64,000 nt of DNA from an uncultured Acidimicrobiaceae bacterium (lineage in GTDB: Bacteria > Actinomycetota > Acidimicrobiia > Spongiisociales > ZC4RG35): contig CAZTXD010000002.1 of assembly GCA_964617995.1 (NCBI GenBank), forward strand, positions 4,862 to 68,861, written 5' to 3'. Position 1 is the first letter of the stretch; each line of letters starts with the position of its first letter. Below the pieces are notes generated by a model that worked only from the letters and a program-made list of their open reading frames with translations, did not search any database and was not told where the DNA came from. The position numbers and the translations under genes are program-made. Of this stretch, positions 34,663 to 51,903 are shown in pieces.

Positions 34663-35500
34663 CAGCTCACTTGTAGCCTTCGTCGACCGTCCCGGGCCGT
34701 CTATCTGGGATGCCCTTGCCGGGGATCCCACCCACCACCTCAGCCGGCATTCGTTGTCGTTGCTGGAACGCGACGCCAACCGTTGGTCCGCCCGCTACCT
34801 GCGACCTCCCGCCCGGCTGATATCGAGGGTCCTCGTGGGGATCATCACCCTCCTCAAGCGGCTCCTGCCCGGGGACATGTCGTCACACCGCACGCTCGAC
34901 AGGCTCGGCGTCTGGTTCATGTCTAGATTCGTTTCGGAGGAGGGCGGGGAACTGCTCATGCGCCATTTCATCCTCGAGACCAACGTGCTGGCCTTCATCG
35001 CTCGCAACGCCGGTCTGGAGGAGCCGACCCTGCGACCTACCACCCTCGGTCAGCTCGGCGACAACGCGGTGGTGGTCCACGACGTCAACGTGTACGAGCT
35101 GCTCAGCGGGTTGGCCAACAAGCCGCTGCCGAGACCGGAGGACAGGACGTCGCCGCTCGATTTCACGATGCTCGATGTGACCCCCGTCGACACCACCGGC
35201 AAGCGGCGATGGATGCGTCTCGACCTGGAGACCGCCCTGGCGTGCATGAATGTGGCGTTCGCCCTCTTCACTACTGCCGAGGAATACCGGCGGGCGGTCC
35301 ACTCGCTGCAACTCGACGAGTCGTTGCTCGGGTGCCTTGCCGAGCTCACCGGCGATGAGCTGTTCCGAATCTGGAGGCCGGCCGGCTACGTGGCGATCGT
35401 GCGGACCAACCGCGACGTGCCCCGTGACCTGTTCGCCCACGCCATCGTCCACGAGTACGCCCATGCCCGCCTCGAGTGGCATGCCCGGAGGGCCGGTTAG
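34655..35500 (+). CDS. Hypothetical protein, translationally coupled to FabH-HDO fusion
   Basis: ATGTCTGA overlap (start 34655, upstream stop 34662); 281 aa, no recognised motif. Confidence 0.55.
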   Translation: MSDSSLVAFVDRPGPSIWDALAGDPTHHLSRHSLSLLERDANRWSARYLRPPARLISRVLVGIITLLKRLLPGDMSSHRTLDRLGVWFMSRFVSEEGGELLMRHFILETNVLAFIARNAGLEEPTLRPTTLGQLGDNAVVVHDVNVYELLSGLANKPLPRPEDRTSPLDFTMLDVTPVDTTGKRRWMRLDLETALACMNVAFALFTTAEEYRRAVHSLQLDESLLGCLAELTGDELFRIWRPAGYVAIVRTNRDVPRDLFAHAIVHEYAHARLEWHARRAG

Positions 35501-36670: not shown

Positions 36671-37432
36671 CTAGCCGCTGACGGTGAACTCCCGCACCAT
36701 GCCCTGGATGAAGTGCGGGGGCCCGTCGGCGGCCTCTGCCTCCTCGAAGGAGGTGGCCCCGGTGGGGATGAAGCAGATGATGACGTAGCGTCCGGACTCG
36801 AGGTCGGCGTACAAGGTCGACCCGTCACCCGGAGCTGCGAACGCCACCCCTCTGAACGTTGCCTTGTCCTCCACCTCCTCCTCGGGCAGCTCGAGCAGCT
36901 CCTCGATGGTCTCGGTGGTGTCGTCGTTGATCCGGATCAACGCCATCTCGTGCAACTCGGTCCCGTTGTTGGTGAAGTCGAAAGCGGTCATGCCCCCACC
37001 AACGGCATCGAGGTCGGCGTCGTAGGCATAGTCGATGGCGTCCACCTCGACGGTGGCGAACCCGCACTCGTCTCCGATGAACCCGTCGACGACCGCCGAG
37101 TCCTCGGCGAAGCTCGCCGATTCCGTAACGACGAAGAACGCCTCCTCGTCGAGGTCGGCTACCGGCGCGAGAAGGGCGTCGGCCATCCCGTTGACGGCTG
37201 AAGCTATCTCCGTCGGGGCGTTGGACTTGAGATCCTCGAGGCCGGCGGTGACTTCCTCGACCCACGGCACGGGATCGGCCTCATCTGGGCCGAAGTCGAG
37301 CAGCGTGCTGACTTCGATGTAGTCGTCGCAGAAGGCCCCCACCTCGGCACTGGGGCCGCTGCTACAAGCGCCAATCGTCAATCCAGCCACCAAGACCATG
37401 ACTCCTACCGTGGACGTGCGCGAAGCACTCAC
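36671..37432 (-). CDS. Secreted lipoprotein, acidic, unknown function
   Basis: Signal peptide with lipobox LTIGAC; Asp/Glu-rich mature protein. Confidence 0.6.
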   Translation of the reverse strand: MSASRTSTVGVMVLVAGLTIGACSSGPSAEVGAFCDDYIEVSTLLDFGPDEADPVPWVEEVTAGLEDLKSNAPTEIASAVNGMADALLAPVADLDEEAFFVVTESASFAEDSAVVDGFIGDECGFATVEVDAIDYAYDADLDAVGGGMTAFDFTNNGTELHEMALIRINDDTTETIEELLELPEEEVEDKATFRGVAFAAPGDGSTLYADLESGRYVIICFIPTGATSFEEAEAADGPPHFIQGMVREFTVSG

Positions 37433-37498: not shown

Positions 37499-40230
37499 TC
37501 ACCACTGCCGCAGCAGCCAGAGCTCCGGCTCCCAGTCGCCCGAGGCGATGTCGGCGAAGAGCGTGACCGCCTGGGTCAGAGAATTCTCGGCCTCCTCCTT
37601 CCGTCCCGACTGGTGGTGGAGGTCAGCAAGGTGATTGAGGAGTGCCGCCTGATGGTGGCGGTATCCGGCCCGGTCGGCGATGGCCACCGCCTCGGTGACC
37701 ATCTCGACGGCCTCATCCAGCTCTCCGGCATCAGCGAGCAGATGTGCCTTGTTGTTGAGAGCTGCGATCCGGGCCGGTTCCGTGGAGCCGGCCATCTCCA
37801 GGGCATCGTCGACATGCTCTGTCGCCTTCTCCGGGTCGGGGTCGACGACGGCCAAGATGTTGTAGGCGCGGGCGACGAGCACGGGGTCTCGTTTCGCCTC
37901 TGCGGCTTCGAGAGCGGTCGTGGCGAAGGAGATGGCGGCTTCGGCGTCGCCCGTCCGGTGCTTGAGCAGCGCCCAATCGGCATACAGATCCGCCGGCTCA
38001 GGGTGGTCACGGCGAGCACGGGTGAAGCTCTCCTCGGCGAGTTCGAACCTACCGAGGATGCGGTAGAGGTCGCCGATGCGGTGTTCGACCAGGGCAAGAT
38101 CCGCGCCGGTGAAGTGTGAGGCGGCGGCGCGCAGTTCGCGCTTGGCCACCTGATAGTCGCCTCGGGCCATCGCTAGCTCACCGAGGGCAAGGCGCAGCCG
38201 TCCCATGTCGGGATGGCCGAGGGCGATCGCCATCTCATAGGAGGTGACCGCCTCGTCGTGGGCGTAGACAGCGCGGGCCAGATCTCCCGCCGACATGTAC
38301 CACGAAGCTGCGTCCTCACTGCCGGCTGCGTGCAGCTGGGCGGCGGCGGCCGTGGCCAGACGTGCATCGGACCGGACTCTGGGTTTCGCCAGGAGGGCCT
38401 CGGCGGCACGCCTGTGCAGGAGACGACGTCGGATCAACGACGTGGACTCGTAGCACATCGTCTCCAGGGCATCGAGGGTGAATCCGAGCTTGCCGTCTTC
38501 GTGTTCCCGCAGAAGGCCCGCTGAGATGAGCTCTTCGACCGCTTCGACTATCTCGTCTTCGGTGCGTCCGCTGGTGTCGCGCAGGAGCTGGGCGTCGCAG
38601 ATCCCGTCGAGGACTGCCGCCGCCGCCATTATCTGATGGGCGAGATCGGAGAGACGTCGACGTTTCGAGTCCATGTACTTCTGAACGCTCTCCGCGTCGG
38701 GGTTCACCACTCCGTCCGAGTCGAGTGCTTTCTTGACCAGGAGCGGTATGCCGCCGGTGGCGGCGATGATGGCTTCAACGTCGGTCTTCGGGTAGTCGTC
38801 GTGCAGGCTGGACGGGGTGAGAGGGTCGAGGACGAGCATCTCGTCGGGCTCTGTTGCGATCTCCCTGACGGCGGGATGCAGCGAGCCCACGTCTCGGGTG
38901 GCGACGACGAGAAGGAGAGGCAGGTTCCCAGCGCGTCGATGCACATAGGACACGAGGTGGGCCGACGCCGCGTCCATCCACTGGGCATCATCGATGGTCA
39001 CCACCACCGGCCCATTGGCAGTGGCCGGCTCCATCAACTCGAGGAAGGCCTCACGGAGACGGAGCTCTCCGAGGCTGCCCGATTCGCCTTCGGCCGCACC
39101 AGGCGCCAGCTTGGGATCGAGTCGGGTGAGCTCGGTGAGCGCCCACTCGGGGACGTTCAACTCGCCGCCGTTGTTGCTCGACACGAAGCCATCCAACAGC
39201 TGGGTGGCGACCCCGTATGGGAGTTGCGAGTCGGGACTGAAGGCCCTGCCTGAGACGATGGAGACTCCGAGATCTCGGGAGAACTGCACGAGGTACTCGA
39301 TCAATCGGGTCTTTCCCATCCACGAAGCTCCGGAAATCACCAAGAGCTTCCCCGGCGGGGAGATCGTATCGACGAGTCGGCGCAGCGTCTCCATCGCCTC
39401 CTCACGGCCGATCATCCCTGCCTCGACCGGCGACTCGGCGAGGCGGTGGGCCCTGACCGGCTTCCTCACTCCCGGGGCCGGCGGCAGATCCTCGTCGAGG
39501 ATGGCCTCGAAGAGCTCGGTGGTCTCATCGAGTGGGGGGACACCGAGCTCGCGATCGAGGACCGCCACACAATCGCGATAGGCCTGGATCGATCCCGGTC
39601 GATCACCGGCCCAGGCACAGAGAAGCATCAACAACCGGTGAGCGGGCTCGTGCAGCTCGTCGAGACGGATCCACCGAATCGCCGCAGCAGTCGCCTCGCC
39701 GTAGTCGCCGGAGCCAGCATTCCCCATCGCAAGACGTTGGAACACGTCTCCGGCCTCGAGACGGAGTGACTCTGTGACCATTCGGGCCCAGTCCTCGAAG
39801 TCCGGTGCCTCTCTCACCGAGAAGGCGCCGAGAAAGTCACCTCGGTAGAGGTCGGCCGCTTTACGGAGATGGGGAAGACAAGCCGGGCACACGTCGTGGA
39901 CGTCGTGATCATGTTGCCCGGTGGCCTCGACTTCGGTCCGGAACTGGTGGACGTCACAGATGAACCCGTCCTCGATCGTCACCCGGTTCCGATCGGCGTT
40001 GATCCAGTCCGCCCCGATCCCGCTGCGGAGAGCAGAGAGCGTCCGGCGCAAGGTGGCCCTCGACCTCTCCGGGGATGAATCGGCCCAGAAGAGCCCGGCG
40101 AGAGCATCACGGTCGGCACTGCGCTCGATGGCTAGATAGGCGAGCATGGCGATGGCCTTGCGCGTGTCCACCTCGACGTACGCCGAGTCGGCGGTCACCT
40201 CCGGCGACCCGAACAACCGTATTTCGAGCA
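37499..40230 (-). CDS. SARP/AfsR-family regulator (OmpR-type DNA-binding + BTAD + NB-ARC ATPase + TPR)
   Basis: Start placed at MLEIRLFGSPEV (ATG 40230); P-loop GASWMGKT; C-terminal TPR-like repeats. Confidence 0.85.
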
Positions 40231-40360
40231 TGCGATGACTTTCCCATTCGAAAATAGTCGATGCGTTACGGCAAGCGGATCTCGGCCACTTCGTGACGGG
40301 GCCAGCGACTGAGGCCATTTCCGTTGCGCTTACGTAACGAGGTCATGGCATCGTTGCGCC

Positions 40361-41548
40361 GTGATCGATCCCAGGAGAGTGGTTAGTCGGCGCGTAGCCC
40401 TCCACACCAGAGTCGTTTTGATCGCGGCGTCGACGGCCTTGATCGCGTATCTCCTCGGAGGGGCGCTCGGATGGTGGTCCGCGCTGGAGGGCGTGGAATC
40501 GTTGGTGATCATTGGGGCGTCGCTGATCTTCGTCGCTGTCGGTTCCTTGATCATCGGTAAGGCGGACTCGAACCGGGTTGGCTGGGTATTCGCCCTGGTC
40601 GGGATATCCATCCTGTTGTCCGGCGTGACCGGAGGGCTCGCCGACCGGGGCCTCCTCGTGTTCGACGCCATCGGTGGGGCGTTCTGGCTCTCCTGGCTCG
40701 CCGCGGTCGGGTTGGTGGTTCTCTGGTATCCCACCGGAAGACCAGCCAGTTCGCGATGGATCTGGGTCCAGTGGCTGGGATTTGTGTTGATCGGGCTCAC
40801 CTTCGTTCTCTATGTGTTTGCTGAAGAACTGTGCTCGGAATTCTCGGAGCCCCAAGGGTGCATCGGCTACGTGGCGAATCCGATCGGTGTCCCCGCTGTC
40901 CCCAATCCGGAGTTCGGCTGGATATCAGGCCCGCTCTTCGCTGGCGTCGCTGTGTTCCTCCTGTCATCGTTGGCGTCCCTGGTAACGAGATTTCGCCGAG
41001 CCAGGGGGGTGGAACGTCTTCAGCTCAAGTGGTTCCTGCTCGCCTGCACGGTCTTCGCAGTCGCGTTCGCGGGGACGATCTCCTACGAAGCGTGGTCCGG
41101 TCGGGCTTCCCCCTTTTGGCTCGGCATTCTCTTCCAAGTGGCGATCCTGGCGATGCCGGTGACAGCGACCCTGGCCATTCTCCGCTATCGGCTCTACGAG
41201 ATCGACCGGATCATCTCCCGGACGGTGTCGTATGCGCTGGTGGTGGGTCTGCTCGGGTTGCTGGTGGCCGGTGTGGCCGCGGTCGCCGGCTCGCAGTTCG
41301 AGACACCTTGGGTGGTGGCGGCCACCACGCTGGGGATGGCGGCGTTGTTCAACCCGGTGCGGAGGAGAATGCAGATCTGGGTGGATCGTCGTTTCAACCG
41401 GTCTCGCTATGACGCCCAGCGGGTGATGGACGAGTTCGCCGGTTCGTTGCGTGAGCGCGTGGACGCCGATGAGGTGGTTGAGGGATGGCTCGGGGTGGTC
41501 GACTCCACGATGCAACCTGCGGCTGTGGGTGTGTGGGTGAGGCAGTGA
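40361..41548 (+). CDS. Polytopic membrane protein, paralogue 1 of five-member tandem family (conserved C-terminal module)
   Basis: GTG 40361; FPTGR motif (YPTGRP), RLQLKW, C-terminal ILRYRLYEIDRIISRTVSYALV...VDRRFNRSRYDAQRVMDEFAGSLRERVD...QPAAVGVWVRQ. Confidence 0.8.
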   Translation: MIDPRRVVSRRVALHTRVVLIAASTALIAYLLGGALGWWSALEGVESLVIIGASLIFVAVGSLIIGKADSNRVGWVFALVGISILLSGVTGGLADRGLLVFDAIGGAFWLSWLAAVGLVVLWYPTGRPASSRWIWVQWLGFVLIGLTFVLYVFAEELCSEFSEPQGCIGYVANPIGVPAVPNPEFGWISGPLFAGVAVFLLSSLASLVTRFRRARGVERLQLKWFLLACTVFAVAFAGTISYEAWSGRASPFWLGILFQVAILAMPVTATLAILRYRLYEIDRIISRTVSYALVVGLLGLLVAGVAAVAGSQFETPWVVAATTLGMAALFNPVRRRMQIWVDRRFNRSRYDAQRVMDEFAGSLRERVDADEVVEGWLGVVDSTMQPAAVGVWVRQ

Positions 41549-42708
41549 TGGCGACGGACTCGATGCGTCGCCTCGGAGGAATCGCCATGGCTGTCTCGGC
41601 TCTTCTGCTGGGTGGGGTGAGTTTCGTATCGGCCCCGGAAGAACCGGTGGCGGTGGTGGTACAGCAGTTGGTGTTTGCCCTGGTCACGATGGGTGTGGGG
41701 CTGCTCCTCGTGTTGAGGCGGCCCGGGCACAGGATTGGCTTCGTGATGCTGGCCCTTGGCCTTTCCTTTTCGATGATGGGCATGGGTCAGGCACTGACAC
41801 GCGTCTCTCACCAGGTCGGAGACATGAGCCGAGCAGTCATTTGGGCTCAGTTCGAAGGAGTCGGTTGGGTCTTCTTCATCCTGACACTGTTCAACCTACT
41901 CCCTCTGTGGTTTCCCACGGGGAGGACGGCCAACGTCTTCGGGCAGTGGGTCCTCAGAGTCGCGCTGGCCGTGGCCATCGTTGGGGTGTTGGGCACTGTC
42001 TTTGCCGAAAGAACTTGCGTCTCTTGGCCGGCTGGGGGTGTCGGTGACGACTGTCTTGAGTTCGCCGCCAGCTCCTGGGGGTTCCTGGAGTACTCTGTCG
42101 GTGAGGTTGCCGGTCAGGCCGTCTTGCTGCTCACGGGCCTGATATCGCTCCTCACCCTCGGATATCGCTTCGTCCGCGCCAGGGGAACGGAGCGACAGCA
42201 GTTGAAATGGTTCGCTTTCGGATTCGCTTTGTTCGTCGTGGCCCTGGGGGCATCGCTGGTTCTGGGTACCAACATGGACTTGGTCATCTGGACCGCCATC
42301 GGTGTGGTGCCAGCTTCGATAGCGCTGGCGGTGCTTCGCTATCGCCTCTACGAGATCGACCGGATCGTTTCGAGGACGGTGTCGTACGCCCTGGTCGCAG
42401 GTCTGCTCGGGTTGCTGGTGGCAGCGGTGGCCGCGGTCGCCGGGTCGCAGTTCGAGACCCCTTGGGTGGTGGCGGCGACCACTCTGGCGGTGGCTGCAAT
42501 GTTCAACCCGCTTCGGCGGAGGGTTCAGGGATGGGTGGACCGTCGTTTCAACCGGTCTCGATACGACGCCCAGCGGGTGATGGATGACTTCGTCGGGTCG
42601 TTGCGGGATCGCGTCGACGCCGACGAGGTGGTCGAGGGCTGGCTCGGGGTCGTCGATTCCACGATGCAACCGGCAGCCGTGGGCGTGTGGGTGAAGGTAC
42701 CGGGGTGA
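41548..42708 (+). CDS. Polytopic membrane protein, paralogue 2
   Basis: ATG overlaps upstream TGA (TGATG); same motif set (FPTGR, RQQLKW, RYRLYEIDRIVSRT, DRRFNRSRYDAQRVMDDF, GVWVK). Confidence 0.8.
   Translation: MATDSMRRLGGIAMAVSALLLGGVSFVSAPEEPVAVVVQQLVFALVTMGVGLLLVLRRPGHRIGFVMLALGLSFSMMGMGQALTRVSHQVGDMSRAVIWAQFEGVGWVFFILTLFNLLPLWFPTGRTANVFGQWVLRVALAVAIVGVLGTVFAERTCVSWPAGGVGDDCLEFAASSWGFLEYSVGEVAGQAVLLLTGLISLLTLGYRFVRARGTERQQLKWFAFGFALFVVALGASLVLGTNMDLVIWTAIGVVPASIALAVLRYRLYEIDRIVSRTVSYALVAGLLGLLVAAVAAVAGSQFETPWVVAATTLAVAAMFNPLRRRVQGWVDRRFNRSRYDAQRVMDDFVGSLRDRVDADEVVEGWLGVVDSTMQPAAVGVWVKVPG
42463..42584 (+). repeat. ~122-bp tract identical to 44729-44850 (paralogue 2 vs paralogue 4)
   Basis: TGGGTGGTGGCGGCGACCACTCTGGCGGTGGCTGCAATGTTCAACCCGCTTCGGCGGAGGGTTCAGGGATGGGTGGACCGTCGTTTCAACCGGTCTCGATACGACGCCCAGCGGGTGATGGA present in both copies. 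Confidence 0.85.
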
Positions 42709-43844
42709 GCAGACACCAGCGGGAGACCGTGAATATGGCCCTACTCGTGATGGCGGTGGTCCTGGCGATGCTCGGTGTGTTGGCCGGTGTCTTTTTCGGC
42801 GGGCTGGAGCCGGGCGACGAGCTGTGGCCACTCGGATGGGTGATGTGGGCACCCGTCGGCGCTCTCATCCTCTGGAGACGGCCCAGCAACGGAGTCGGAA
42901 CGATCATGCTGGCCATCGGCCTGTGTTGGGGGCTCGGCTTCCTTGCAGTTGCGTTGGCCGAAAGCCCGGCTCAGTTAGGCGTCCGGGTGTGGGCCGAGCT
43001 GGTCAGTCTCCTGCTCGGTGTGCTTCCCTGGCTCGGGATCATCTGGCTCCTTCTCGTCTTCCCCACAGGACGGCTTCACGGGCGTCTGGAGCGGATCACA
43101 GGGCTCGGGTTGTTGGCGCTCGCCATCCTCGGGGTCGTCTCCTTTGCGAGCAGCCCTGAACCCATGGAATCGACGGGTGTGCAGAGTCCGCTCGCCGTAC
43201 CGTGGATGGAGTCCTTGACCACCTGGTTCATCAGCGAGAGCGGGTTTCTCGTCGTGATCGTCGTCATAGCGGCTTCCATCGTCTCGCTGGCTCTTCGCTG
43301 GCACGCGAGCAGCGGGATCGAAAGACACCAGTACCGATGGCTCCTCCTCGGGGCACTCTTGTTCGTCTCGATCCTCGGCATTGGTCAGGTGGTCCCCGAA
43401 GACAGCCTCGCCGGGTTCACCTGGGTCGTGGCCGGGGCCGCCATACCGGTGTCTGTGGGCGTCGCCGTGTCTCGATACCGCCTGTTCGAGATCGATCGGA
43501 TCATCTCTCGGACGGTGTCGTATGCGTCGGTGGTTGCGGTGCTGGCTGCCGCGGTCGCCGGCGTAGCTGCCCTGGCGGGCTCCCAGTTCCAGGAGCCCTG
43601 GGTGGTGGCCGCCACCACGCTCGGGGTGGCGGCCACGTTCAATCCGGTGCGGAAGCGAGTTCAGAGCATCGTCGATCGTCGATTCAATCGATCGAAGTAC
43701 GACGCCGAGCGGGTGGTCGCCGAGTTCGCCGGGTCGTTGCGTGACCGTGTCGACACCGACGAAGTGGTCGAGGGCTGGCTCGGTGTTGTCGACTCGACGA
43801 TGGAACCGGCAGCCGTCGGCGTGTGGCTGAGGGGGGCACGATGA
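42705..43844 (+). CDS. Polytopic membrane protein, paralogue 3
   Basis: GTG overlapping upstream stop (GTGA) or ATG 42735; motifs FPTGR, RHQYRW, RYRLFEIDRIISRT, DRRFNRSKYDAERVVAEF, GVWLR. Confidence 0.8.
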   Translation: MSRHQRETVNMALLVMAVVLAMLGVLAGVFFGGLEPGDELWPLGWVMWAPVGALILWRRPSNGVGTIMLAIGLCWGLGFLAVALAESPAQLGVRVWAELVSLLLGVLPWLGIIWLLLVFPTGRLHGRLERITGLGLLALAILGVVSFASSPEPMESTGVQSPLAVPWMESLTTWFISESGFLVVIVVIAASIVSLALRWHASSGIERHQYRWLLLGALLFVSILGIGQVVPEDSLAGFTWVVAGAAIPVSVGVAVSRYRLFEIDRIISRTVSYASVVAVLAAAVAGVAALAGSQFQEPWVVAATTLGVAATFNPVRKRVQSIVDRRFNRSKYDAERVVAEFAGSLRDRVDTDEVVEGWLGVVDSTMEPAAVGVWLRGAR

Positions 43845-44977
43845 ATCGATCCCCGATGGCGTCGATCGGATTGGCCCTGACCTTCGCGATGGTCGCTGGA
43901 ATGGTCACCGTCGCTGCGGTCGGTGGCCAACTGGTGGCAACGTACCTGGTGGCGGGGCTGCTGATGTCGATCGTCGGTTGGCGAATACTGATATCGCATC
44001 CCCGTCATGGCGTGGGTCGCCTGCTGATGGTGGCCGGAGTCTCGGGCACCGCCCTCTCGTTCTGCATGCCGTACGCGCAGCTCTCCTTGTCGAGTGGGCG
44101 GCTTCCGGGGGAGTGGGTAGCAGCATGGGCCGGTTCGTGGATCTGGGCGGTCCAACTCGCATGCCTGCCGGCCTTGCTATTCGTCTATCCGTCGGGACGG
44201 GCATTGGGGAGGTGGCGATGGGTCTTCAGGGTGTGGGTGGCGGCTGTGGCTGCGGTCATCTTGACCGGCGCCGTGCAGCTGGTTGGGACCAGCGCCGGTG
44301 AGATGGTCGCCCAAGCCCGGCCCGGTGCTCCCGAGCTTCCCGAATATCGGTTTCTCAACGACGCCGCGCCATTGCTGATCATGTTCCTGGGCTTTCCCCT
44401 TGGGGGCGTTTCCTTCTCGCGACGTTGGGTAGGCGGGGGTCTGGAGACTCGTCACCAGATGAAGTGGCTGGCTCTCGGCCCCGTGGCGATGGCGATGGCC
44501 CTGGTGACGATGGAGGTGCTGGACGCACCGCCGGTGGTGTCCGGCGTGGCCTGGGCCACCGCACTGACCGTGTTCCCCCTTGCGATCGGTATGGCGATCC
44601 TCCGCTATCGCCTCTACGACATCGACCGGATCATCTCGAGGACGGTCTCGTATGCCCTGGTCGTTGGACTGCTCGCCCTGGCCGTAGCAGCGGTGGCGGC
44701 CGTCGCCGGGTCGCAGTTCGAGACTCCCTGGGTGGTGGCGGCGACCACTCTGGCGGTGGCTGCAATGTTCAACCCGCTTCGGCGGAGGGTTCAGGGATGG
44801 GTGGACCGTCGTTTCAACCGGTCTCGATACGACGCCCAGCGGGTGATGGACGACTTCGCCGGCTCGCTCCGGGACCCGGTCGATGCTGATGGTGTGATCG
44901 ACGGCTGGGTGTGGGTAGTGAGGGGCACGATGGAGCCGGGGGCCATCGGAGTCTGGGTCAGGGACCACCCCGAATGA
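43841..44977 (+). CDS. Polytopic membrane protein, paralogue 4
   Basis: ATGA overlap; motifs YPSGR, RHQMKW, RYRLYDIDRIISRT, DRRFNRSRYDAQRVMDDF, GVWVRD. Confidence 0.8.
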   Translation: MNRSPMASIGLALTFAMVAGMVTVAAVGGQLVATYLVAGLLMSIVGWRILISHPRHGVGRLLMVAGVSGTALSFCMPYAQLSLSSGRLPGEWVAAWAGSWIWAVQLACLPALLFVYPSGRALGRWRWVFRVWVAAVAAVILTGAVQLVGTSAGEMVAQARPGAPELPEYRFLNDAAPLLIMFLGFPLGGVSFSRRWVGGGLETRHQMKWLALGPVAMAMALVTMEVLDAPPVVSGVAWATALTVFPLAIGMAILRYRLYDIDRIISRTVSYALVVGLLALAVAAVAAVAGSQFETPWVVAATTLAVAAMFNPLRRRVQGWVDRRFNRSRYDAQRVMDDFAGSLRDPVDADGVIDGWVWVVRGTMEPGAIGVWVRDHPE

Positions 44978-46119
44978 GCCTTCGTTCCTCGCTGATCGTC
45001 GTGGCCGCGGTGGCATACGTCGTGGCTGCGGTGACCGTCACCCTCATGTCGGGGCCCATTCCGCCGTTCCCGTGGGATCCGTTCTGGCTCAACTGGGTCG
45101 GTTTCCCGGTGGTGGGAGCCCTGATTCTCCTCAAGAAACCGGGGAACAACATCGGCAGGATCCTTCTCGCCGTCGGCGTGACCGTTGCCATCTCCAATGG
45201 GTCCGTGCTCGCCGAGCTACTCGGTGCGCCCCGGTCCGACCTCTACGCGTTGGCCAGCCAGCTCGCCCTGATGCCGATAGCCGTGTTGATCCCGAGCCTC
45301 GTACTCCTGTTCCCAACCGGGTTGATCCCAACGCGATGGTGGCGGCATGGCATCCGGCTTGCCTGGGGCGCCGACGCTCTGCTCATCATGTGGTACATAG
45401 TGCGGCCTCACCCAAACCCAGGGGCAACAGAAGGCGTCTGGCACCCGAACCCACTCGGGGTCGAGGCCTTACGCTCCCTGGAGGGTGCGGTTGTCGGGTC
45501 GGCCGGGGTGGTGTTGGCTGTCTTTGCGGCCGCGACGGTGACCCACGCGGTGGTCAGCTACCGGAGGGGCTCGGCCATCGAGAGGCATCAGGTGAGGTGG
45601 GTCCTGTTCGCCGCGGTGGTGACGCCACTCCTGTACCTCGTCGGCACCTTCCTCGAATCCCAGGTGTTGTGGCTGGGAAACGCATTGGTCGCCTCTGGCT
45701 TGCTCCTGGGAGCCAACGCGGTGGCGGTCGCGATCGGGGTGGCGGTGTTCAAATACCGGCTCTTCGACATCGACCGGCTCATCTCGAGGACGGCTTCTTA
45801 CGGGTTCGTGGTGACTCTCCTCGCGTTCGGGTTCTTCGGGATCTCTGCCCTGGTGGGTTCCCGGACCTCGGAGAGGCCGCTGTTCGTGGCCGCGGCCACC
45901 CTCGTTGCTGCCGCCCTGTTCAACCCGCTGAGAACCCGTATGCAGCGCTGGGTCAACCGACGGTTCAACCGATCGACCTATGACGCCGAGATGGTCATGT
46001 CCGAGTTCGCTGGCTCGCTGCGCGAGGGCATCGACATCGAAGGTGTCATCGATGGCTGGGTGGGTGTCGTGGGAGAGACCATGGAGCCGGGAGCCATCGG
46101 GGTATGGGTCCGGGACTGA
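44974..46119 (+). CDS. Polytopic membrane protein, paralogue 5
   Basis: ATGA overlap; motifs FPTGL, RHQVRW, KYRLFDIDRLISRT, NRRFNRSTYDAEMVMSEF, GVWVRD. Confidence 0.8.
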   Translation: MSLRSSLIVVAAVAYVVAAVTVTLMSGPIPPFPWDPFWLNWVGFPVVGALILLKKPGNNIGRILLAVGVTVAISNGSVLAELLGAPRSDLYALASQLALMPIAVLIPSLVLLFPTGLIPTRWWRHGIRLAWGADALLIMWYIVRPHPNPGATEGVWHPNPLGVEALRSLEGAVVGSAGVVLAVFAAATVTHAVVSYRRGSAIERHQVRWVLFAAVVTPLLYLVGTFLESQVLWLGNALVASGLLLGANAVAVAIGVAVFKYRLFDIDRLISRTASYGFVVTLLAFGFFGISALVGSRTSERPLFVAAATLVAAALFNPLRTRMQRWVNRRFNRSTYDAEMVMSEFAGSLREGIDIEGVIDGWVGVVGETMEPGAIGVWVRD

Positions 46120-46444
46120 TCACCCCAATCGTTACCGGCTCATCTCATCTGAGTGGGGATTGGCATATGCGACGCGTGGTGGTGATGGCCCGGTTGGGCG
46201 GGAGCGATGTCGCCGGCGTAGCGGAGGCAGAGGAGTCAGGAGTGGTCGACGACTCCCACTCCTCGGAAAGTTCGACAGTTGAGGCACACCACCTCCGCGA
46301 TCGCCGGGCGCCCTGCCCGGCCATAATGGCTCCTCTGCCGGCTCCCCGGTTCGCCGGCCTCACCACGCCATCCTCCCCGCAGGTTTGGGACCTGTCCTGA
46401 AGAGGTAAGGGGAGGTGACGTTCGCGGATCTTGGAGGAGCTGTG

Positions 46445-47752
46445 ATGCGACGTGACACCCCTTCTCTCACGCTGCTGGCGGCGGTGCTGGCCCTGCTGCT
46501 GGCCATGGTGCTGCCGGCCGCTGCCCATCCCGCGGAGGACCCCGACGACGGCAAGGCCAAGTCTGGTCTCACCGTGGAGGACATCCAGGCCATGCCCACC
46601 GCCGATTTGGAGGCCATGGGACCTGCCGAGTGTGTCGACGGTATGGCCGCCATCTTTCCCTGTGACAACGTCGACCTGGCCGCCTTCGTCCCACTCGAGG
46701 AGCTGGGTGGGGTCAACGGGAGCGACATCTGGGGGTGGGAGGATCCGCTCACCGGCCGTGAGTACGCCATCATGACCACCGGGGAAGGAACGGCATTCGT
46801 AGACGTCACCGAGCCCACAGCCCCGGTGGTGGTGGGGATCTTGCCCACCGAGAGCGTGGACAACAGGATCCTGTGGCGCGACGTCAAGGTCCACGCCGAC
46901 CACGCCTTCATCGTGTCCGAGATCGGGACCCACGGCATGCAGGTATTCGATCTGACCCGGTTGCGCGGCGTCGCATTGACCCCCGCCCTCTTCACAGCAG
47001 ACGCCGTATACCGCGGGTTCGGCAACGCCCACAACGTGGCTGTCAACCCCGACACCGGTTTCGCCTACGCCGTGGGCTCCAACACCTGCGACGGAGGCCT
47101 GCACATGGTGGACGTCCAGGACCCGAAGAACCCCACGTTCGCCGGCTGCGCCGACGAAGACGGCTACGTCCACGACGTGCAATGTGTCATCTACGAGGGT
47201 AAGGACGGCCGTTTCCGCGGCCGGGAGATCTGCTTCGGTTCCAACGAGGACACGGTGACCCTCTACGACGTCACTGACAAGGCCAACCCCGTTGTCCTCT
47301 CCCGCACCGGCTACCCCAGCGCCGCCTACACCCACCAGGGCTGGCTGACGCCGGACCAGCGCTGGTTCCTGTTCGGCGACGAGCTGGATGAGCTGAACGG
47401 CACGGTGGGCAACACCACCACCTACATCATGAAGGTGGAGAAGCTGGACCGGCCGGCGCGGGTGACCCCATTCACCCACTCGACGCGAACCATCGACCAC
47501 AACCTCTACATCCACGGCCCCCACGTCTATGAGGCCAACTATGTGGAAGGCTTGCAGATCCTCTCCTACGACCGCAAGACCCTGGAGAAAGGCGAGCTGA
47601 CCCGGGTCGGCTACTTCGACGTGGTGCCGGGCGTGGACGAGGCGGTTTTCGGGGGCGCGTGGAGCAACTATCGCTTCGACTCGGGGACCACGGTGGTCAG
47701 CGCCATCGAGAGCGGTCTCTTCGTTCTCATTCCCGATCTCGCTGGGTCCTGA
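46445..47752 (+). CDS. Secreted LVIVD-repeat beta-propeller protein (choice-of-anchor B-like)
   Basis: Signal peptide MRRDTPSLTLLAAVLALLLAMVLPAAAHP; repeats '..GLHMVDVQDPKNP', 'TVTLYDVTDKANP', 'GLQILSYD'. Confidence 0.65.
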   Translation: MRRDTPSLTLLAAVLALLLAMVLPAAAHPAEDPDDGKAKSGLTVEDIQAMPTADLEAMGPAECVDGMAAIFPCDNVDLAAFVPLEELGGVNGSDIWGWEDPLTGREYAIMTTGEGTAFVDVTEPTAPVVVGILPTESVDNRILWRDVKVHADHAFIVSEIGTHGMQVFDLTRLRGVALTPALFTADAVYRGFGNAHNVAVNPDTGFAYAVGSNTCDGGLHMVDVQDPKNPTFAGCADEDGYVHDVQCVIYEGKDGRFRGREICFGSNEDTVTLYDVTDKANPVVLSRTGYPSAAYTHQGWLTPDQRWFLFGDELDELNGTVGNTTTYIMKVEKLDRPARVTPFTHSTRTIDHNLYIHGPHVYEANYVEGLQILSYDRKTLEKGELTRVGYFDVVPGVDEAVFGGAWSNYRFDSGTTVVSAIESGLFVLIPDLAGS

Positions 47753-47957
47753 GGCCTGGGGGGTGGGCCGGTAGTGGGGCCGGTCCACCCTCTGGGATGA
47801 GTGGCGCCGATAGACCGGTGCCCGGTGGCTCAACACGATCGTGGAGTGCCGGATTGACCCATTCGTCGACACGTTCCGTGAGAGGCCGGATGAAGTCGGT
47901 CCTCTCGTAACGCTCCCGTACCGGTCGTGTGGCATATCTGGGAGCGAAAGGAGCGAC

Positions 47958-48476
47958 ATGATCCACTACATGTTCGAGACAGAGTGGGTGCTGACGGCAC
48001 CGGTCGAGCGGGTGTTCGAGCTTCTTTCCCATCCCGAGGGTTACGCCTCGTGGTGGCCGTCGGTGAGAGAGTCGGTACTCCTGGAAGAGGGTGACTCCCG
48101 AGGCGTAGGTAGGAGCGCCTCGTTCACGGTGCACGGTCCGTTGCGATCAACTCTGCGCCTTCAGCTGAGGGCGATCGAGGTCGATCGCCCCCGTCGGGTC
48201 CACAACGTCGTCCGAGGAGACCTGGTCGGCACCGGGACACATCATCTCGAGGCGCATCCCGACGGCACCCGAGTGAGATTCCACTGGTATGTGTCGACCA
48301 CGAGAGCCTGGATGAGCACGGTGGCCAGGATCGGCAGGCCGTTCTTCGCCCTCGCTCACAAGTACGTGATGCACCAGGGTTGCGAGGGGATGGCCAAATA
48401 CCTCGGGGCGAGGCTCCTGATGGCCAGGTCGACGGTGGTCGACTCACCGACCCCGATTCCGGTGCCACAGAGTTAG
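47958..48476 (+). CDS. SRPBCC (polyketide cyclase/dehydrase-like) family protein
   Basis: ATG 47958 after AAAGGAG; 172 aa with 'WVLTAPVERVFELLSHPEGYASWWP' typical SRPBCC N-terminus. Confidence 0.65.
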   Translation: MIHYMFETEWVLTAPVERVFELLSHPEGYASWWPSVRESVLLEEGDSRGVGRSASFTVHGPLRSTLRLQLRAIEVDRPRRVHNVVRGDLVGTGTHHLEAHPDGTRVRFHWYVSTTRAWMSTVARIGRPFFALAHKYVMHQGCEGMAKYLGARLLMARSTVVDSPTPIPVPQS

Positions 48477-48552: not shown

Positions 48553-50142
48553 ATGTTTCAGGTGAGAAATCGCCCCAAGAAGACCAAGGCGACCCGTGAA
48601 GAGTCGTTCTCACCCGCACCGGCTTCGAAGACACGCCACGTCGACGCCATCGAGATACCACCAGGCGACACCCTGGAGACGATCCTGTTGTCTGCCGGTG
48701 GCCCGGTGGAAGTCGCCGGCATCGAGGTCGAGTCGGACACCATCGACCGATTGCGTGAGCAGGAAGTCGAGCTGGTCGTTCCCCTCATCGGCCAGGGGGA
48801 GCTCCTCGGCGCTCTCTATCTAGGCCGTCGTCTCTCCGATCAGCCCTACTCGACCGACGATCGACGTCTTCTTGGCAACCTCGCCTCTCAGGTCGCTCCC
48901 GCGATGAAGGTGGCCCAGCTCGTCCGCGAGCAGCAGACCGAAGCGAAGGAGAAAGAGCGCATCGAGCAGGAGCTCAAGGTGGCCGCCCTGATCCAACAGA
49001 CCCTGCTCCCCAAGGAGCTGCCCTCGATCAACGGCTGGAATGTAGATGCCTTCTACCGGCCTGCCCGTGCCGTGGGTGGTGACTTCTACGACTTCATCGA
49101 GTTGGGAGATCATCGTCTCGGAGTCGTCATCGGAGACGTCACCGACAAGGGCGTGCCAGCGGCGCTCGTGATGGCCACCTCCCGCTCGATGCTGCGTGCC
49201 GCCGCACTCCAGCACGACTCCCCATCCGAGGTGCTGGCAGCAGTCAACGAGAACCTCGTGCCCGAGATACCGGACGCGATGTTCGTGACCTGTCTGTACG
49301 CGATCATCGACACCGAGGTCGGCGAGGTCGTCTTTGCCAATGCCGGGCACAACCTTCCATACGTCCGGACCAGCGAAGGAGTCCTGGAGCTACGGGCGAC
49401 AGGGATGCCTCTGGGACTCATGCCGGGCATGATTTACGAGGAGCGAACGCACGGTCTTGGAGACGGCGATGTAATGGTCCTGACCAGCGACGGTATAACC
49501 GAGGCACACAGCCCGCAAGGCGAGATGTATGGCTTCTCTCGGCTGATGGGACGGGTCGCCAAGAAGACCAGAGGCGAGGACATCTGCAGCGCCCTCGTCG
49601 CGGATCTGGAGAGCTGGACCGGGCCGGGCGCCGAGCAGGAGGACGACATCACCCTGGTGGTCATCCGGCGAACCGCATCGGCCAGTGCGTCTGCGGGCGC
49701 CTTCGACACCGGCGAGGATGTGCTGATTGAGTTCACGCTTCCCAGTGTCGAGGGCAACGAGCGGCTGGCCATCAAGAGGGTTGCCGATGCGGTCGGTCAT
49801 CTCGGGCTCGACGGCTCGCGGCTCGAGAAGCTGAAGACAGCCGTCGGGGAAACCGTGATGAACGCCATCGAGCACGGAAACGAGAACAACCCCGAGCTCG
49901 ACGTCGCGGTGAAGGTGGCGGTGAGCCCCGAGCGCGTGATCGTGCGCGTCGTAGACGAGGGTGGCGTCGAGGATATCCCCGAGGCGGCCACCCCCGACCT
50001 GGAAGCAAAACTCGCCGGGGAGCAACCCCCGAGGGGCTGGGGGCTCTTTCTGGTCGAGCAGATGGTGGACGAGGTCAACACGTCCCGTGAGAACGGGCAT
50101 CACATTGTCGAGCTGGTCATGAACCGGGGAGGAGAAGCCTGA
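48553..50142 (+). CDS. PP2C/SpoIIE-type serine phosphatase (RsbU-like) fused to RsbW-like anti-sigma-factor kinase (HATPase_c) domain
   Basis: GAF-like remnant, PP2C motifs 'GDFYDF', 'GDVTDKGVPAALVMA', 'LTSDGITEA'; C-terminal N-box 'ETVMNAIEHG', G1 'VVDEGGV', G2 'GWGLFLV'. Confidence 0.8.
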   Translation: MFQVRNRPKKTKATREESFSPAPASKTRHVDAIEIPPGDTLETILLSAGGPVEVAGIEVESDTIDRLREQEVELVVPLIGQGELLGALYLGRRLSDQPYSTDDRRLLGNLASQVAPAMKVAQLVREQQTEAKEKERIEQELKVAALIQQTLLPKELPSINGWNVDAFYRPARAVGGDFYDFIELGDHRLGVVIGDVTDKGVPAALVMATSRSMLRAAALQHDSPSEVLAAVNENLVPEIPDAMFVTCLYAIIDTEVGEVVFANAGHNLPYVRTSEGVLELRATGMPLGLMPGMIYEERTHGLGDGDVMVLTSDGITEAHSPQGEMYGFSRLMGRVAKKTRGEDICSALVADLESWTGPGAEQEDDITLVVIRRTASASASAGAFDTGEDVLIEFTLPSVEGNERLAIKRVADAVGHLGLDGSRLEKLKTAVGETVMNAIEHGNENNPELDVAVKVAVSPERVIVRVVDEGGVEDIPEAATPDLEAKLAGEQPPRGWGLFLVEQMVDEVNTSRENGHHIVELVMNRGGEA

Positions 50143-50477
50143 TGTCAGGCGAGGAGTTTTCCGCCATGGTGAAACGGTCCGAGAAGGGCTCGGTGATCGA
50201 GCTGGTCGGCACCGTCAACCGGACGTCGAAGGAAGGGATGGAGGCCGCGTATGCGGAGGCATCACGGTCTCCGGGCGAGATCCTGCTCGACTTCAACCGA
50301 GTCGACTACATCAATTCCACCGGTATCGCGATCATCGTCGGGGTGCTGGCGATGGCCCGTGCGGAACAGCGGGAGGTGGGCGCGTTCGGTCTCACCGATC
50401 ATTACAAGGAAGTCTTCGAGATCACCCGTCTCGCCGACTTCATCCACATCTACGAGGACACGACGTCAATCAACTGA
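50142..50477 (+). CDS. STAS-domain anti-sigma-factor antagonist (RsbV/SpoIIAA-like) 1
   Basis: 111 aa; ATG overlaps upstream stop; 'LDFNRVDYINSTGIAIIVGVL'. Confidence 0.8.
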   Translation: MSGEEFSAMVKRSEKGSVIELVGTVNRTSKEGMEAAYAEASRSPGEILLDFNRVDYINSTGIAIIVGVLAMARAEQREVGAFGLTDHYKEVFEITRLADFIHIYEDTTSIN

Positions 50478-50491
50478 GAGAGGGGAAGGCG

Positions 50492-50836
50492 ATGCCGACA
50501 GCGAATCTGACCATGAACATCCGGGAGGTATCCGAAGGGGTACGCGTCATCGACGTAGTCGGTGAGATCACTACCTTCTCGGAACAGCAGATCGCCGAGG
50601 CCCACGAGGAGGCGGGCGAGGGGGCGACGGCCGTGATCCTCAACTTCGAAGGTCTCGAGTACATGAACAGTGGCGGTATCGGGTTGCTGGTCACCACTCT
50701 CATCCGGGCCCAGAGAGCTGGTCATGCCTTGCGGGCATACGGTCTGACCGACCACTACCGGGAGATCTTCTCCCTGACCCGTCTCGACGAGGCGATCGCC
50801 ATCTACGTCGACGAAGCGGCGGCCATCGCCGGGTGA
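50492..50836 (+). CDS. STAS-domain anti-sigma-factor antagonist 2
   Basis: 114 aa; 'LNFEGLEYMNSGGIGLLVTTL', paralogous to upstream STAS protein. Confidence 0.8.
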   Translation: MPTANLTMNIREVSEGVRVIDVVGEITTFSEQQIAEAHEEAGEGATAVILNFEGLEYMNSGGIGLLVTTLIRAQRAGHALRAYGLTDHYREIFSLTRLDEAIAIYVDEAAAIAG

Positions 50837-51222: not shown

Positions 51223-51903
51223 ATGACCGAACCGAGAGACGCAGGCAACTGGGCGAAGCCGATCGACGAGTTCCACGTCGTAGACCTGGCCGAGGGGGTT
51301 TTCAAAGGCAACGTCGAAGGCAGGAAGCCGACCGGGCCGCTTCAAGGGTTCGGCCAGCTCTGGCAGAAGACCTATCAGGTATCGATACCCGGACCCAGCC
51401 CCGAGGCCGTCATCCAGACCTGGAAGGACCACTTCGGCGACTTCTGGTACCCATCCAACAAGTTCTACGCCCCTGCCGCCGGGATAGCCCCGGGCGAGAT
51501 CGCGGTGGTCGCCGGAGGCCGGGGGCCCACCAAGGTGACTACGGGAGTCCGTGTCATCTACGCCGACGACACCTCATGGTCGTACATGACACCCGAGGGT
51601 CACCCCTGGGCGGCGATCATCACATTCAGCGCCCACGAGGAGGAGGCGGGCACAGCGGCCCGGATCCATCTGCTGGTCCGGGCCAACGACCCGCTCTACG
51701 AAGCCAGCTTCCGGCTCTACACCAGCCGGCTCGAGGACAAGATCTGGACCCACACTCTCACCCGGCTCGCCGCCCATTTCGGGAGTTCGGAGCATATCGA
51801 GCTACAGGCGGCGTTGATCGACAAGAAACGTCAGTGGGCTCAGTTCGGCAACATCTGGAAGAACTCTGCGATCAGGACGCTACTTCGCCGGGATCGCAGG
51901 TAG
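51223..51903 (+). CDS. Hypothetical protein (possibly DUF1990-like)
   Basis: 226 aa ORF preceded by GGGGACGAAAGGAG; family assignment uncertain. Confidence 0.5.
   Translation: MTEPRDAGNWAKPIDEFHVVDLAEGVFKGNVEGRKPTGPLQGFGQLWQKTYQVSIPGPSPEAVIQTWKDHFGDFWYPSNKFYAPAAGIAPGEIAVVAGGRGPTKVTTGVRVIYADDTSWSYMTPEGHPWAAIITFSAHEEEAGTAARIHLLVRANDPLYEASFRLYTSRLEDKIWTHTLTRLAAHFGSSEHIELQAALIDKKRQWAQFGNIWKNSAIRTLLRRDRR

Follow-up and report, generated by a model that had tools for sequence, protein, structure and literature searches.

A run of five overlapping, intact paralogous genes at 40361–46119 on the + strand of a 64,000-nucleotide window (the whole stretch of DNA analysed, from an uncultured Acidimicrobiaceae bacterium) raises the question of what a cell does with five versions of one membrane protein. 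An earlier note on this DNA had described five head-to-tail, overlapping paralogues, and the ORF coordinates agree: paralogue 1 occupies 40361–41548 (395 aa, GTG start), paralogue 2 41548–42708 (386 aa, ATG start), paralogue 3 42705–43844 (379 aa, GTG start), paralogue 4 43841–44977 (378 aa, ATG start) and paralogue 5 44974–46119 (381 aa, ATG start), with the overlaps TGATG, GTGA, ATGA and ATGA at the four junctions, as reported. The note had also raised the possibility of pseudogenes. All five full-length proteins match positions 3–391 of the family HMM and the GC3 of their genes is 0.77–0.83, indicating that these are intact genes. It is highly improbable that the array is the non-functional, decaying debris of a duplicated gene in which sensor and phosphatase were once fused: although fragments and tail-only mini-ORFs occur in relatives (L122 6771–7070, L123 7416–7685) and frameshifts in many long-read MAG loci, the five copies here are full length with every family-invariant residue, their orthologues are conserved across genomes at 43–54% identity, and the stop/start overlaps have been kept.

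An alignment of the five proteins contains the previously described F/Y-P-[ST]-G and R-x-Q-x-[KR]-W motifs and a conserved C-terminal module of ~125 aa (C-module), and the N-terminal regions, said to have diverged strongly, are 20–31% identical among copies. The figure of over 80% identity given for the C-module was too generous, as copies 1–4 share 70–89% and copy 5, the most divergent of the five in this module, shares 54–65% with the rest. AlphaFold2 modelling of paralogue 2 predicts 10 TM helices rather than the proposed 7–8, with both termini in the cytoplasm, the FPTGR motif after TM4 rather than after the second or third helix, and all conserved motifs on the cytoplasmic face. The best fold matches of the membrane bundle are 7TM receptors, with similarity to solved structures of that class. 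Following the bundle, the segment FNPLRRRVQxWVDRRFNRSRYDA is best explained as a cytoplasmic juxtamembrane helix; it precedes a tail that is the lowest-confidence part of an otherwise good model (pLDDT <50) and so looks as if it depended on a partner, after which the chain ends, and none of the five polypeptides carries an output domain. Searches of the five sensors against Pfam, NCBIfam, PDB sequences and PADLOC returned no transporter, enzyme or defence family, only sub-threshold noise. The curated-family searches thus bear out the reported lack of a kinase, transporter or enzyme motif, and together with the 7TM fold matches they uphold the description of the proteins as receptor-like or sensor-like. 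The best explanation of each array gene is that its product is a membrane receptor module standing alone, whose 10-TM bundle has a GPCR-like core and is distantly related to HisKA_7TM.

The likeness to the membrane-embedded input region of some histidine kinases that the earlier note had pointed out proved to be real. None of the five sensors matches Pfam PF16927 (HisKA_7TM) at E ≤ 0.1 or reaches its gathering score; 6 of 37 family members match it weakly (best E = 2e-5). Comparing the sensor family (A2) by hhalign with A5, a set of proteins that carry PF16927 and combine HisKA_7TM and GAF with HisKA_3/HATPase_c, HD_5 or Pkinase, gave 99.3% probability (E = 1.7e-20, 323 columns). On this profile evidence the sensor family is homologous to the HisKA_7TM-type input region found in histidine kinases, in HD-GYP proteins and in Ser/Thr kinases, as well as in SpoIIE-type phosphatases. 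The homology spans the membrane bundle, an RYRL/RHRL motif and two more TM helices, and continues through the juxtamembrane helix into the beginning of a GAF domain; unlike HisKA_7TM proteins, the array sensors fall below the Pfam threshold, lack a kinase or other output, are tandemly amplified and end after alpha1-beta1 of the GAF. The system had been called undescribed, and it is true that no curated model covers the family; the claim holds only in part because the family is enormous (its C-module occurs in 20,434 clusters at 50% identity) and akin to a described sensor domain, HisKA_7TM being listed as such for archaeal and bacterial kinases (PMC5847659). Among the top 150 representatives, nearly all have the module at their extreme C-terminus, the exceptions being tandem double fusions.

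A candidate for the missing output lies 2.4 kb downstream of the array, in a conserved module that the earlier note had overlooked. A 529-aa protein (48553–50142, + strand) joins half a GAF domain to a SpoIIE-type PP2C phosphatase and an RsbW-like HATPase_c_2 kinase (Pfam: SpoIIE 177 bits, HATPase_c_2 70 bits), and is followed on the same strand by two Pfam STAS proteins of 111 aa (50142–50477) and 114 aa (50492–50836). With phosphorylatable-Ser motifs INSTG in the first STAS protein and MNSGG in the second, the locus holds a partner-switching set of the RsbU/RsbW/RsbV type. The PP2C-kinase, which is 70–87% identical across orthologues, covers only positions 42–132 of the GAF profile, so that the N-terminal third is missing, and in its model one hairpin stands in place of the sheet. 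In the related loci compared, the conserved cluster encodes neither a sigma factor nor another obvious final target; the nearest ECF-type sigma gene lies 12 kb away (27494–28366) and is not conserved with the cluster.

The piece absent from the PP2C-kinase corresponds to what the sensors carry at their ends. In relatives with a fused output, the family's final ~27 residues make up helix 1 and strand 1 of a GAF domain, and it is precisely at this point that the array sensors stop. Among fused homologues, the family's end overlaps with the beginning of the GAF in L106 (family-HMM position 390 at residue 345, Pfam GAF position 1 at residue 319), L105 and L094 (family-HMM position 364 at residue 466, GAF position 3 at residue 468), and hhalign places the tail on the alpha1-beta1 start of the GAF in such relatives. 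By sequence, the sensor tail is therefore the alpha1-beta1 opening of a GAF domain, and within the cluster half a GAF is found on the PP2C protein alone, which lacks exactly the sensors' piece. Tested alone, the tail matched nothing in Pfam; in chimeras of tail and half-GAF scanned with hmmscan, the GAF match grew longer with the tails of copies 1 and 2 only, gaining 2–3 bits versus 0–1 for shuffled tails, and GAF profile positions ~28–41 (beta2) are covered by neither partner. Sensor, GAF and SpoIIE domains also occur in single ORFs on independent JGI metagenome contigs (L086–L091, L094), and the L091 fusion runs from sensor residue 378 straight into PP2C residue 32, with zero gap. These fused relatives lack HATPase_c_2, and none was seen within SARP/STAS clusters.

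To place the array in a genomic context, we compared 43 related loci of ≥15 kb. The order SARP regulator, one to nine sensors, (SRPBCC), half-GAF-PP2C-kinase, STAS, STAS recurs in Acidimicrobiia, other Actinomycetota and Chloroflexota. A SARP gene and/or a PP2C-kinase gene stands beside the sensors in 22 of the 43 loci, both in 19; tandem arrays of 2–8 sensors are present in 29/37 of clusters, and 20 of the 21 large loci without either partner hold a single sensor copy. Reverse sampling from PP2C-kinase orthologues again found sensors adjoining, in L120 (5 copies), L122 and L123. Lone sensor copies without a conserved neighbour make up about half of the large loci sampled, and no recurrent neighbours were found around them. 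Since stand-alone sensors are far commoner than the cluster, the tail must also serve elsewhere, or act over a distance. The success and frequent isolation of this form could also mean that the five proteins are autonomous and output-less, acting as scaffolds, as truncated decoys forming heterodimers with full-length 7TM-GAF kinases from other loci, or outside signalling altogether, with adjacency reflecting only co-regulation; their motifs, all cytoplasmic, might then form a site of their own. We consider this unlikely, as the proteins match no transporter, enzyme or defence family, tandem amplification is found almost only beside SARP/PP2C, the same module drives PP2C within one polypeptide in the fusions, and the PP2C protein is without exactly the piece that the sensors carry.

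The sensors' other conserved partner is encoded divergently. The earlier note had placed a 910-aa SARP-type regulator ~130 bp from the array, and we find BTAD, AAA_16 and TPR domains (Pfam: BTAD 68, AAA_16 67, TPR_12 62 bits) in a SARP/STAND protein at 37499–40231 on the − strand. Homologues align from about Met-30 (residue 28–30) of the longest ORF, which extends to 40318, giving a protein of 910 aa and an intergenic gap of 129 bp; Pfam detected no OmpR-type wHTH at its N-terminus. Of the 22 cluster-type loci of ≥15 kb, 20 have the regulator, and its head-to-head pairing with the array is as conserved as the PP2C link, being kept in L062, L069 and L076, where the PP2C module is on the other side. 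TPR domains commonly bind extended C-terminal peptides, and the sensors might accordingly signal to this SARP-STAND protein instead of the phosphatase, their tail or juxtamembrane helix being bound by the TPR region; this would keep the regulator on the membrane or set it free, and change its ATPase/oligomerisation state. The persistence of the pairing where the PP2C module has moved fits such a scheme, and a C-module homogenised within arrays would suit any single common partner. The scheme nevertheless seems quite unlikely to us: we saw zero sensor-SARP fusions, whereas sensor-GAF-PP2C fusions are seamless and recurrent; the tail is a GAF start, and the cluster's only half-GAF is on the PP2C protein; and, with conserved heptamers lying between the two, regulation of the operon by the SARP is the simpler reading of the divergent transcription.

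These heptamers lie at 40264–40339 in the divergent promoter: CGTTACG (40264–40270), CGTGACG (40292–40298), CGTTGCG (40322–40328) and, after 4 nt, CGTAACG (40333–40339), the last two starting 11 bp apart. Direct heptamer repeats spaced by one helical turn near the target promoter would be expected of large, AfsR-like SARPs. CGTAACG is found in 24 of 25 SARP-sensor intergenic regions of related loci; 12 of these 24 regions have a partner heptamer at ±11 bp, and 17 have an inverted CGTTACG 55–87 bp upstream (160 bp upstream in one further region). The heptamers are therefore a candidate SARP operator.

The N-terminal domains and the C-modules of the sensors have evolved differently. The N-domains of copies 1, 3 and 5 are 43–54% identical to orthologues in other genomes versus 26–34% to their array neighbours; the orthologues of copy 1 hold the first position in the arrays of L036, L022, L083 and L031 (43–50%), and those of copy 3 are in L021, L004 and L031 (49–54%). 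The C-modules of copies 1–4, by contrast, are 71–89% identical to one another versus 56–71% to the C-modules of those same orthologues, and codon identity at conserved residues is raised to 0.69–0.76 for pairs 1–2 and 2–4, versus 0.28–0.45 in the N-terminal regions. Conservation between loci is higher for the tails of cluster-linked sensors (0.46) than for those of lone sensors (0.36) and equal in the two groups for the juxtamembrane helix (0.68–0.69). The earlier note had called the C-terminal module almost invariant; it is indeed common to all five, and its near-invariance is partly family-wide conservation and partly homogenisation within the array.

The analysis thus shows homology, domain boundaries, synteny, natural fusions and this evolutionary mosaic, and we regard a functional coupling of the sensors to the PP2C-kinase as well supported. 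The five receptors probably plug, singly or together, into the one downstream phosphatase-kinase, and are best read as the interchangeable sensor halves of a split, membrane-tethered partner-switching phosphatase. With their diverged N-terminal bundles, the paralogues would respond to differing cues from the membrane or from outside the cytoplasm, and the homogenised C-module would dock each of them onto the single enzyme, likely by providing the missing alpha1-beta1 element; we infer that the GAF domain is in this way reconstituted in trans. Docking would anchor the enzyme at the membrane and set its phosphatase/kinase balance, which would determine the phosphorylation state of the STAS proteins and, through it, the partner-switching output on a presumed final target, while the divergent SARP-STAND regulator probably activates transcription of the operon from the 11-bp-spaced heptamers. 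In its broadest form, which we put forward tentatively and with some doubt, the GAF is divided between interchangeable receptors (alpha1-beta1), up to nine paralogues of them, and one cytosolic phosphatase-kinase (the remainder), signalling proceeds by natural fragment complementation, so that the paralogue which happens to complete the fold determines the state of the cascade, gene conversion keeps the docking fragments matched to their one partner, and Actinomycetota and Chloroflexota could be using a general principle of wiring that has so far gone unrecognised.

Parts of this arrangement have known parallels. Bacillus subtilis SpoIIE, with 10 TM helices, works with SpoIIAA and SpoIIAB. As in SpoIIE and membrane RsbU-type PP2Cs, a multi-TM region would here control a PP2C that dephosphorylates STAS proteins, opposed by a HATPase_c_2 kinase, and the fused relatives L087, L090, L091 and L094 have the TM, regulatory domain and SpoIIE domain layout of SpoIIE-type phosphatases. 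Unlike SpoIIE, however, membrane part and phosphatase are encoded by separate genes, the former in five alternative versions, phosphatase and kinase are fused, and no sigma factor lies alongside; the likeness drawn here is one of architecture. The stressosome contains four paralogous RsbR proteins (PMC11821858). Its paralogues (RsbRA–RD, YtvA), feeding RsbT-RsbU, follow the same logic, sensors with a variable N-terminal domain and a conserved C-terminal assembly domain converging on one partner-switching cascade, but it is a cytoplasmic STAS complex with soluble sensors, whereas the sensors here are polytopic membrane proteins whose shared module consists of TM helices and a GAF fragment. A stressosome combines RsbR-type sensors that end in a STAS domain with RsbS and the RsbT kinase. 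We rejected the array locus as a stressosome, as its only STAS proteins are two of a single domain (111–114 aa) and a separate RsbT is absent. OsaC of Streptomyces coelicolor, which modulates a stress sigma factor, unites an RsbW-like kinase, PP2C and GAF/PAS in a single chain, much like the PP2C-kinase here, although the domain order differs. To our knowledge, OsaC does not depend on detached membrane sensors or a split GAF. It binds SigB via its kinase domain (PMC10117811).

The analysis proposes a testable role for a very large family of 'hypothetical' membrane proteins (>20,000 clusters at 50% identity), defines a conserved SARP and partner-switching cluster in the poorly studied Acidimicrobiia and Chloroflexota, and suggests a way to wire many sensors to one phosphatase-kinase without duplicating the enzyme, the cut between receptor and enzyme passing, unusually, through a GAF domain. 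If the GAF is completed in trans, nature would here offer a rare example of a signalling domain shared out between receptor and effector, and a ready template for modular synthetic sensors.

Three further genes on the + strand border these components. The gene between the array and the SRPBCC gene (46415–47752) encodes a secreted protein of the choice-of-anchor B family (TIGR04312, 444 bits). It had been singled out earlier as a neighbouring LVIVD propeller; its LVIVD match is weak (E = 0.067), and no homologue was found in any related cluster locus, including the closest five-copy relative, L120. We therefore rejected it as part of the system and regard it as a local insertion specific to the window. 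The SRPBCC / Polyketide_cyc2 protein (47841–48476, Pfam 47 bits), of a fold that binds hydrophobic ligands, is a facultative member of the cluster, found at the same position in L001, L005, L006, L083, L085, L120 and L122. Finally, a conserved 226-aa protein (51223–51903), with no Pfam or PDB match, travels with the cluster, its homologues lying downstream of the STAS pair in >20 loci.

Window positions 40361-46119 hold five plus-strand open reading frames (ORFs) of 395, 386, 379, 378 and 381 aa, joined by the stop/start overlaps TGATG, GTGA, ATGA and ATGA, which confirms the array described in the earlier note. The five copies can be aligned end to end, each matches positions 3-391 of the family HMM, and their GC3 is 0.77–0.83; they are intact genes. 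The alignment also bears out the motifs reported as common to all five (F/Y-P-[ST]-G, R-x-Q-x-[KR]-W and the conserved C-terminal ~125 residues, here the C-module), as well as the strong N-terminal divergence, with N-terminal regions only 20–31% identical between copies. The figure of over 80% identity for the C-module is too high, the values being 70–89% among copies 1–4 and 54–65% between copy 5 and the others. Instead of the 7–8 helices counted earlier, AlphaFold2 predicts ten TM helices for copy 2; the model has a mean pLDDT of 84.4, with values above 90 over the first ~260 residues, and is least confident in the tail, comprising the last ~27 residues (pLDDT below 50). By K + R counts in the loops, the N-terminus, all conserved motifs and the C-terminal region are assigned to the cytoplasmic side. 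Among the exposed loops only TM5–TM6 reaches ~30 residues, and it contains a Cys pair in copies 1 and 2; the others are short. Across 40001-46000, AT skew is strongly negative (-0.26) and GC skew positive; this bias is confined to the array and is consistent with the T-rich second codon positions of membrane-protein genes; the long antisense ORFs in this interval and at 46145-47959 are high-GC artefacts.

The absence of any kinase, transporter or enzyme assignment also holds: copies 1–5 gave no match above noise in Pfam, NCBIfam, PDB sequence or PADLOC searches. Relatives are nevertheless abundant. A word-indexed search returned more than 5,233, of which the best 120 are all stand-alone proteins of about 350–480 aa, and the named ones among these 120 are "hypothetical protein" entries from Acidimicrobiia MAGs, with a single exception labelled MFS permease. 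An exhaustive HMMER search with the C-module only yielded 20,434 representatives (50% identity clusters) at E <= 1e-3 and 10,029 at E <= 1e-10. In essentially all of the best 150 of the 20,434, the C-module occupies the very C-terminus; the long proteins that depart from this are tandem double fusions. Two complete sensor units lie head to tail in one polypeptide in the family proteins P0192 (929 aa) and P0320 (961 aa) and in a related locus (L076, 8102-11041), so tandem sensor genes can also occur as covalent dimers. Scanning GTDB species representatives identified at least 575 family loci, most in Acidimicrobiia and others in Cellulomonas, Nocardioidaceae, Mycobacteriales, Chloroflexota and Dormibacterota.

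When the family alignment was compared profile to profile with a HisKA_7TM-bearing set, the match had 99.3% probability (E = 1.7e-20) and spanned 323 columns, starting at TM2 and reaching the last residue; 6 of 37 family members also match PF16927 directly, though weakly. At the level of the superfamily, this upholds the likeness to a histidine-kinase input region suggested in the earlier note. HisKA_7TM itself has been described as a sensor domain but is functionally uncharacterised (PMC5847659). A first search for fusions, using the junction of L015, a long-read MAG locus with frameshifts, found no full-coverage match; independent, uninterrupted fusions came from a metagenome scan with the L015 junction region and Pfam scans of the ORFs returned. 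In these ORFs, a complete GAF and an output domain come after the same membrane region and C-module, as in HisKA_7TM + GAF + HD_5 (L102, L106, L112), HisKA_7TM + GAF + PAS_4 + HisKA_3 + HATPase_c (L105), GAF_2 + Pkinase (L117) and full sensor + GAF + SpoIIE (L086–L091, L094); HisKA_7TM + HisKA + HATPase_c (L104) is the sole case without a GAF match. The sensor-GAF-SpoIIE fusions are without a kinase domain, and none was found inside SARP/STAS clusters.

These fusions locate the point at which the window's sensors end. In L106, residue 345 corresponds to family-HMM position 390 and residue 319 to Pfam GAF position 1; in L094, residue 466 corresponds to family-HMM position 364 and residue 468 to GAF position 3. 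Because the two coordinate systems meet in this way, the last ~27 family residues (VVEGWLGVVDSTMQPAAVGVWVK in copy 2) represent, as judged from the profiles, the opening alpha1-beta1 segment of a GAF domain; the window's sensor proteins stop directly after beta1. The mirror image of this truncation is the downstream 529-aa PP2C-kinase (48553-50142), in which a half-GAF precedes SpoIIE-type PP2C and RsbW-like HATPase_c_2 domains: 27 disordered basic residues precede its GAF matches, which start at profile position ~42 (of 133), and an AlphaFold2 model of residues 1–150 (pLDDT 82.5) shows no more than two short helices, a single beta-hairpin and a long C-terminal helix. In the natural fusion L091, PP2C residue 32 joins sensor residue 378 with no gap, so that at the sequence level this protein is the two window gene products concatenated, without the disordered leader of PP2C or the kinase domain. 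Weak points of the split-GAF reading are that GAF positions ~28–41 fall to neither half and that lone sensors are common. In Pfam scans of chimeric tail + PP2C sequences, the tails of copies 1 and 2 alone lengthened the GAF match, adding 2–3 bits, compared with 0–1 bit for shuffled controls. We consider functional coupling of the sensors to the PP2C-kinase likely; completion of the GAF domain in trans by the sensor tail is a tentative proposal, to which we give somewhat less than even chances.

To survey gene neighbourhoods, six-frame ORFs of all fetched loci were compared with the family HMM and the window's neighbouring proteins. The recurrent order is a divergent SARP regulator, a variable number of sensors, a facultative SRPBCC protein, the GAF-SpoIIE-HATPase_c_2 protein and two STAS proteins, continuing with (optional members in parentheses) a (sensor), a (FAD amine oxidase, on the opposite strand) and a conserved 226-aa protein. 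The window has every component save the FAD amine oxidase, whose gene lies between STAS 2 and the 226-aa gene in most relatives. The 226-aa protein (51223-51903) has no match in Pfam or PDB; in more than 20 loci, spanning Acidimicrobiia, Nocardioidaceae and Chloroflexota, it follows the STAS pair. Among the 43 related loci that reach 15 kb or more, 22 have SARP and/or the PP2C-kinase and 19 have both. Sensor runs of 2–8 copies occur in 29 of 37 cluster loci, copy counts being approximate in the several loci that come from long-read MAGs with frameshifts; among loci of at least 15 kb with neither SARP nor PP2C-kinase, 20 of 21 have a single sensor copy, and no recurrent neighbours were found for these lone copies. 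Gene tables with Pfam labels bear out the layout in L001, L004, L083, L084 and L085. Reverse sampling from PP2C-kinase orthologues found sensors alongside in L120 (five) and L123 (three plus one), and one copy plus fragments in L122; L121 is cut off by a contig end. Mini-ORFs for just the sensor's cytoplasmic tail, in L122 (6771-7070, family HMM 337-390; directly upstream of the PP2C-kinase gene) and L123 (7416-7685, family HMM 352-391), could be soluble "GAF-cap" peptides or the remains of deletions. Encoded at 46415-47752, between the array and the SRPBCC gene, is a secreted protein of the choice-of-anchor B family (TIGR04312), the LVIVD propeller that the earlier note placed downstream of the array; we rejected it as a system member since none of the related clusters carries its gene, including that of L120, the closest five-copy relative.

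Sequence comparison across loci separates the histories of the two sensor regions. N-domains of copies 1, 3 and 5 are 43–54% identical to orthologues elsewhere, often at the same array position, and just 26–34% identical to their array neighbours, whereas the C-modules of copies 1–4 are 71–89% identical to each other and 56–71% identical to those of the N-domain orthologues. Across all arrays with at least three copies, the best C-module match lies in the same locus for 53 of 129 copies, compared with only 12 of 129 for the N-domain. Pairs 1-2 and 2-4 show elevated codon identity at conserved residues (0.69–0.76 versus 0.28–0.45 in N-terminal regions), which suggests some gene conversion in addition to purifying selection. 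The tail is more conserved between loci in cluster-linked sensors (0.46) than in lone sensors (0.36), whereas the juxtamembrane helix is equally conserved in both, and PP2C-kinase orthologues are 70–87% identical and all about 529 aa. Such a pattern would be expected where a large set of diverging sensors has to remain compatible with a single conserved partner.

The SARP gene (37499-40231, minus strand) encodes a BTAD + AAA_16 + TPR (STAND) protein; reading it as anti-phage defence was rejected because of the BTAD domain and the lack of a PADLOC match. Its intergenic region with the sensors carries conserved heptamers at 40264-40339 (CGTTACG, CGTGACG and CGTTGCG-N4-CGTAACG). Of 25 related SARP-sensor intergenic regions, 24 contain CGTAACG; an 11-bp-spaced partner heptamer accompanies it in 12 of these 24, and the distal CGTTACG is its reverse complement, making these repeats a candidate SARP operator. 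A promoter scan found no sigma-70 consensus, and terminator-like sites were no more frequent than chance. Adjoining the SARP gene, 36671-37432 (minus strand) encodes a 253-aa lipoprotein-like protein without a Pfam match, a homologue of which occupies the same position in L017.

We propose that copies 1–5 would each supply an alternative sensor half to a split, membrane-tethered RsbU/SpoIIE-like phosphatase, with SARP probably activating the divergent promoter. Signals would be perceived by the variable membrane bundle; since the exposed loops are short except for TM5–TM6, intramembrane or small hydrophobic ligands seem likely cues, and the facultative SRPBCC protein would, speculatively, agree with this idea. 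The shared C-module would dock on the half-GAF of the PP2C-kinase and may complete the GAF fold; docking would tip the balance between PP2C and HATPase_c_2 acting on the STAS pair. Each STAS protein retains Ser in the expected motif, and the state of the pair would control a target. HisKA_7TM-GAF sensor proteins have a homologous input region, fused to output rather than detached as in the window, and SpoIIE and membrane-bound RsbU phosphatases do the same job in one polypeptide. Stressosome RsbR paralogues follow the same many-sensors-one-cascade logic, although the stressosome is soluble and STAS-based (PMC11821858), and the kinase-phosphatase fusion OsaC is among the nearest known systems (PMC10117811). 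Literature searches turned up neither a split GAF domain nor this cluster. The new elements are a sensor form that is detached, amplified in tandem and devoid of output, a break point inside GAF, and the conserved SARP-linked cluster.

Other genes in the window include an ECF-type sigma factor (Sigma70_r2 + r4_2; 290 aa with a long C-terminal extension) at 27494-28366 (minus strand), 12 kb upstream, which is not an obvious partner-switching target because it is not conserved with the cluster. A 647-aa fusion of KAS-III/thiolase-like and Haem_oxygenas_2 "iron-containing redox enzyme" domains (32719-35500) is followed by a DUF6999 protein (238 bits), and the two could form a small biosynthetic pair. 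Finally, one ORF at 53375-54148 combines an ArsR-type HTH (HTH_5) with a low-molecular-weight phosphotyrosine phosphatase/arsenate reductase-like domain (LMWPc).
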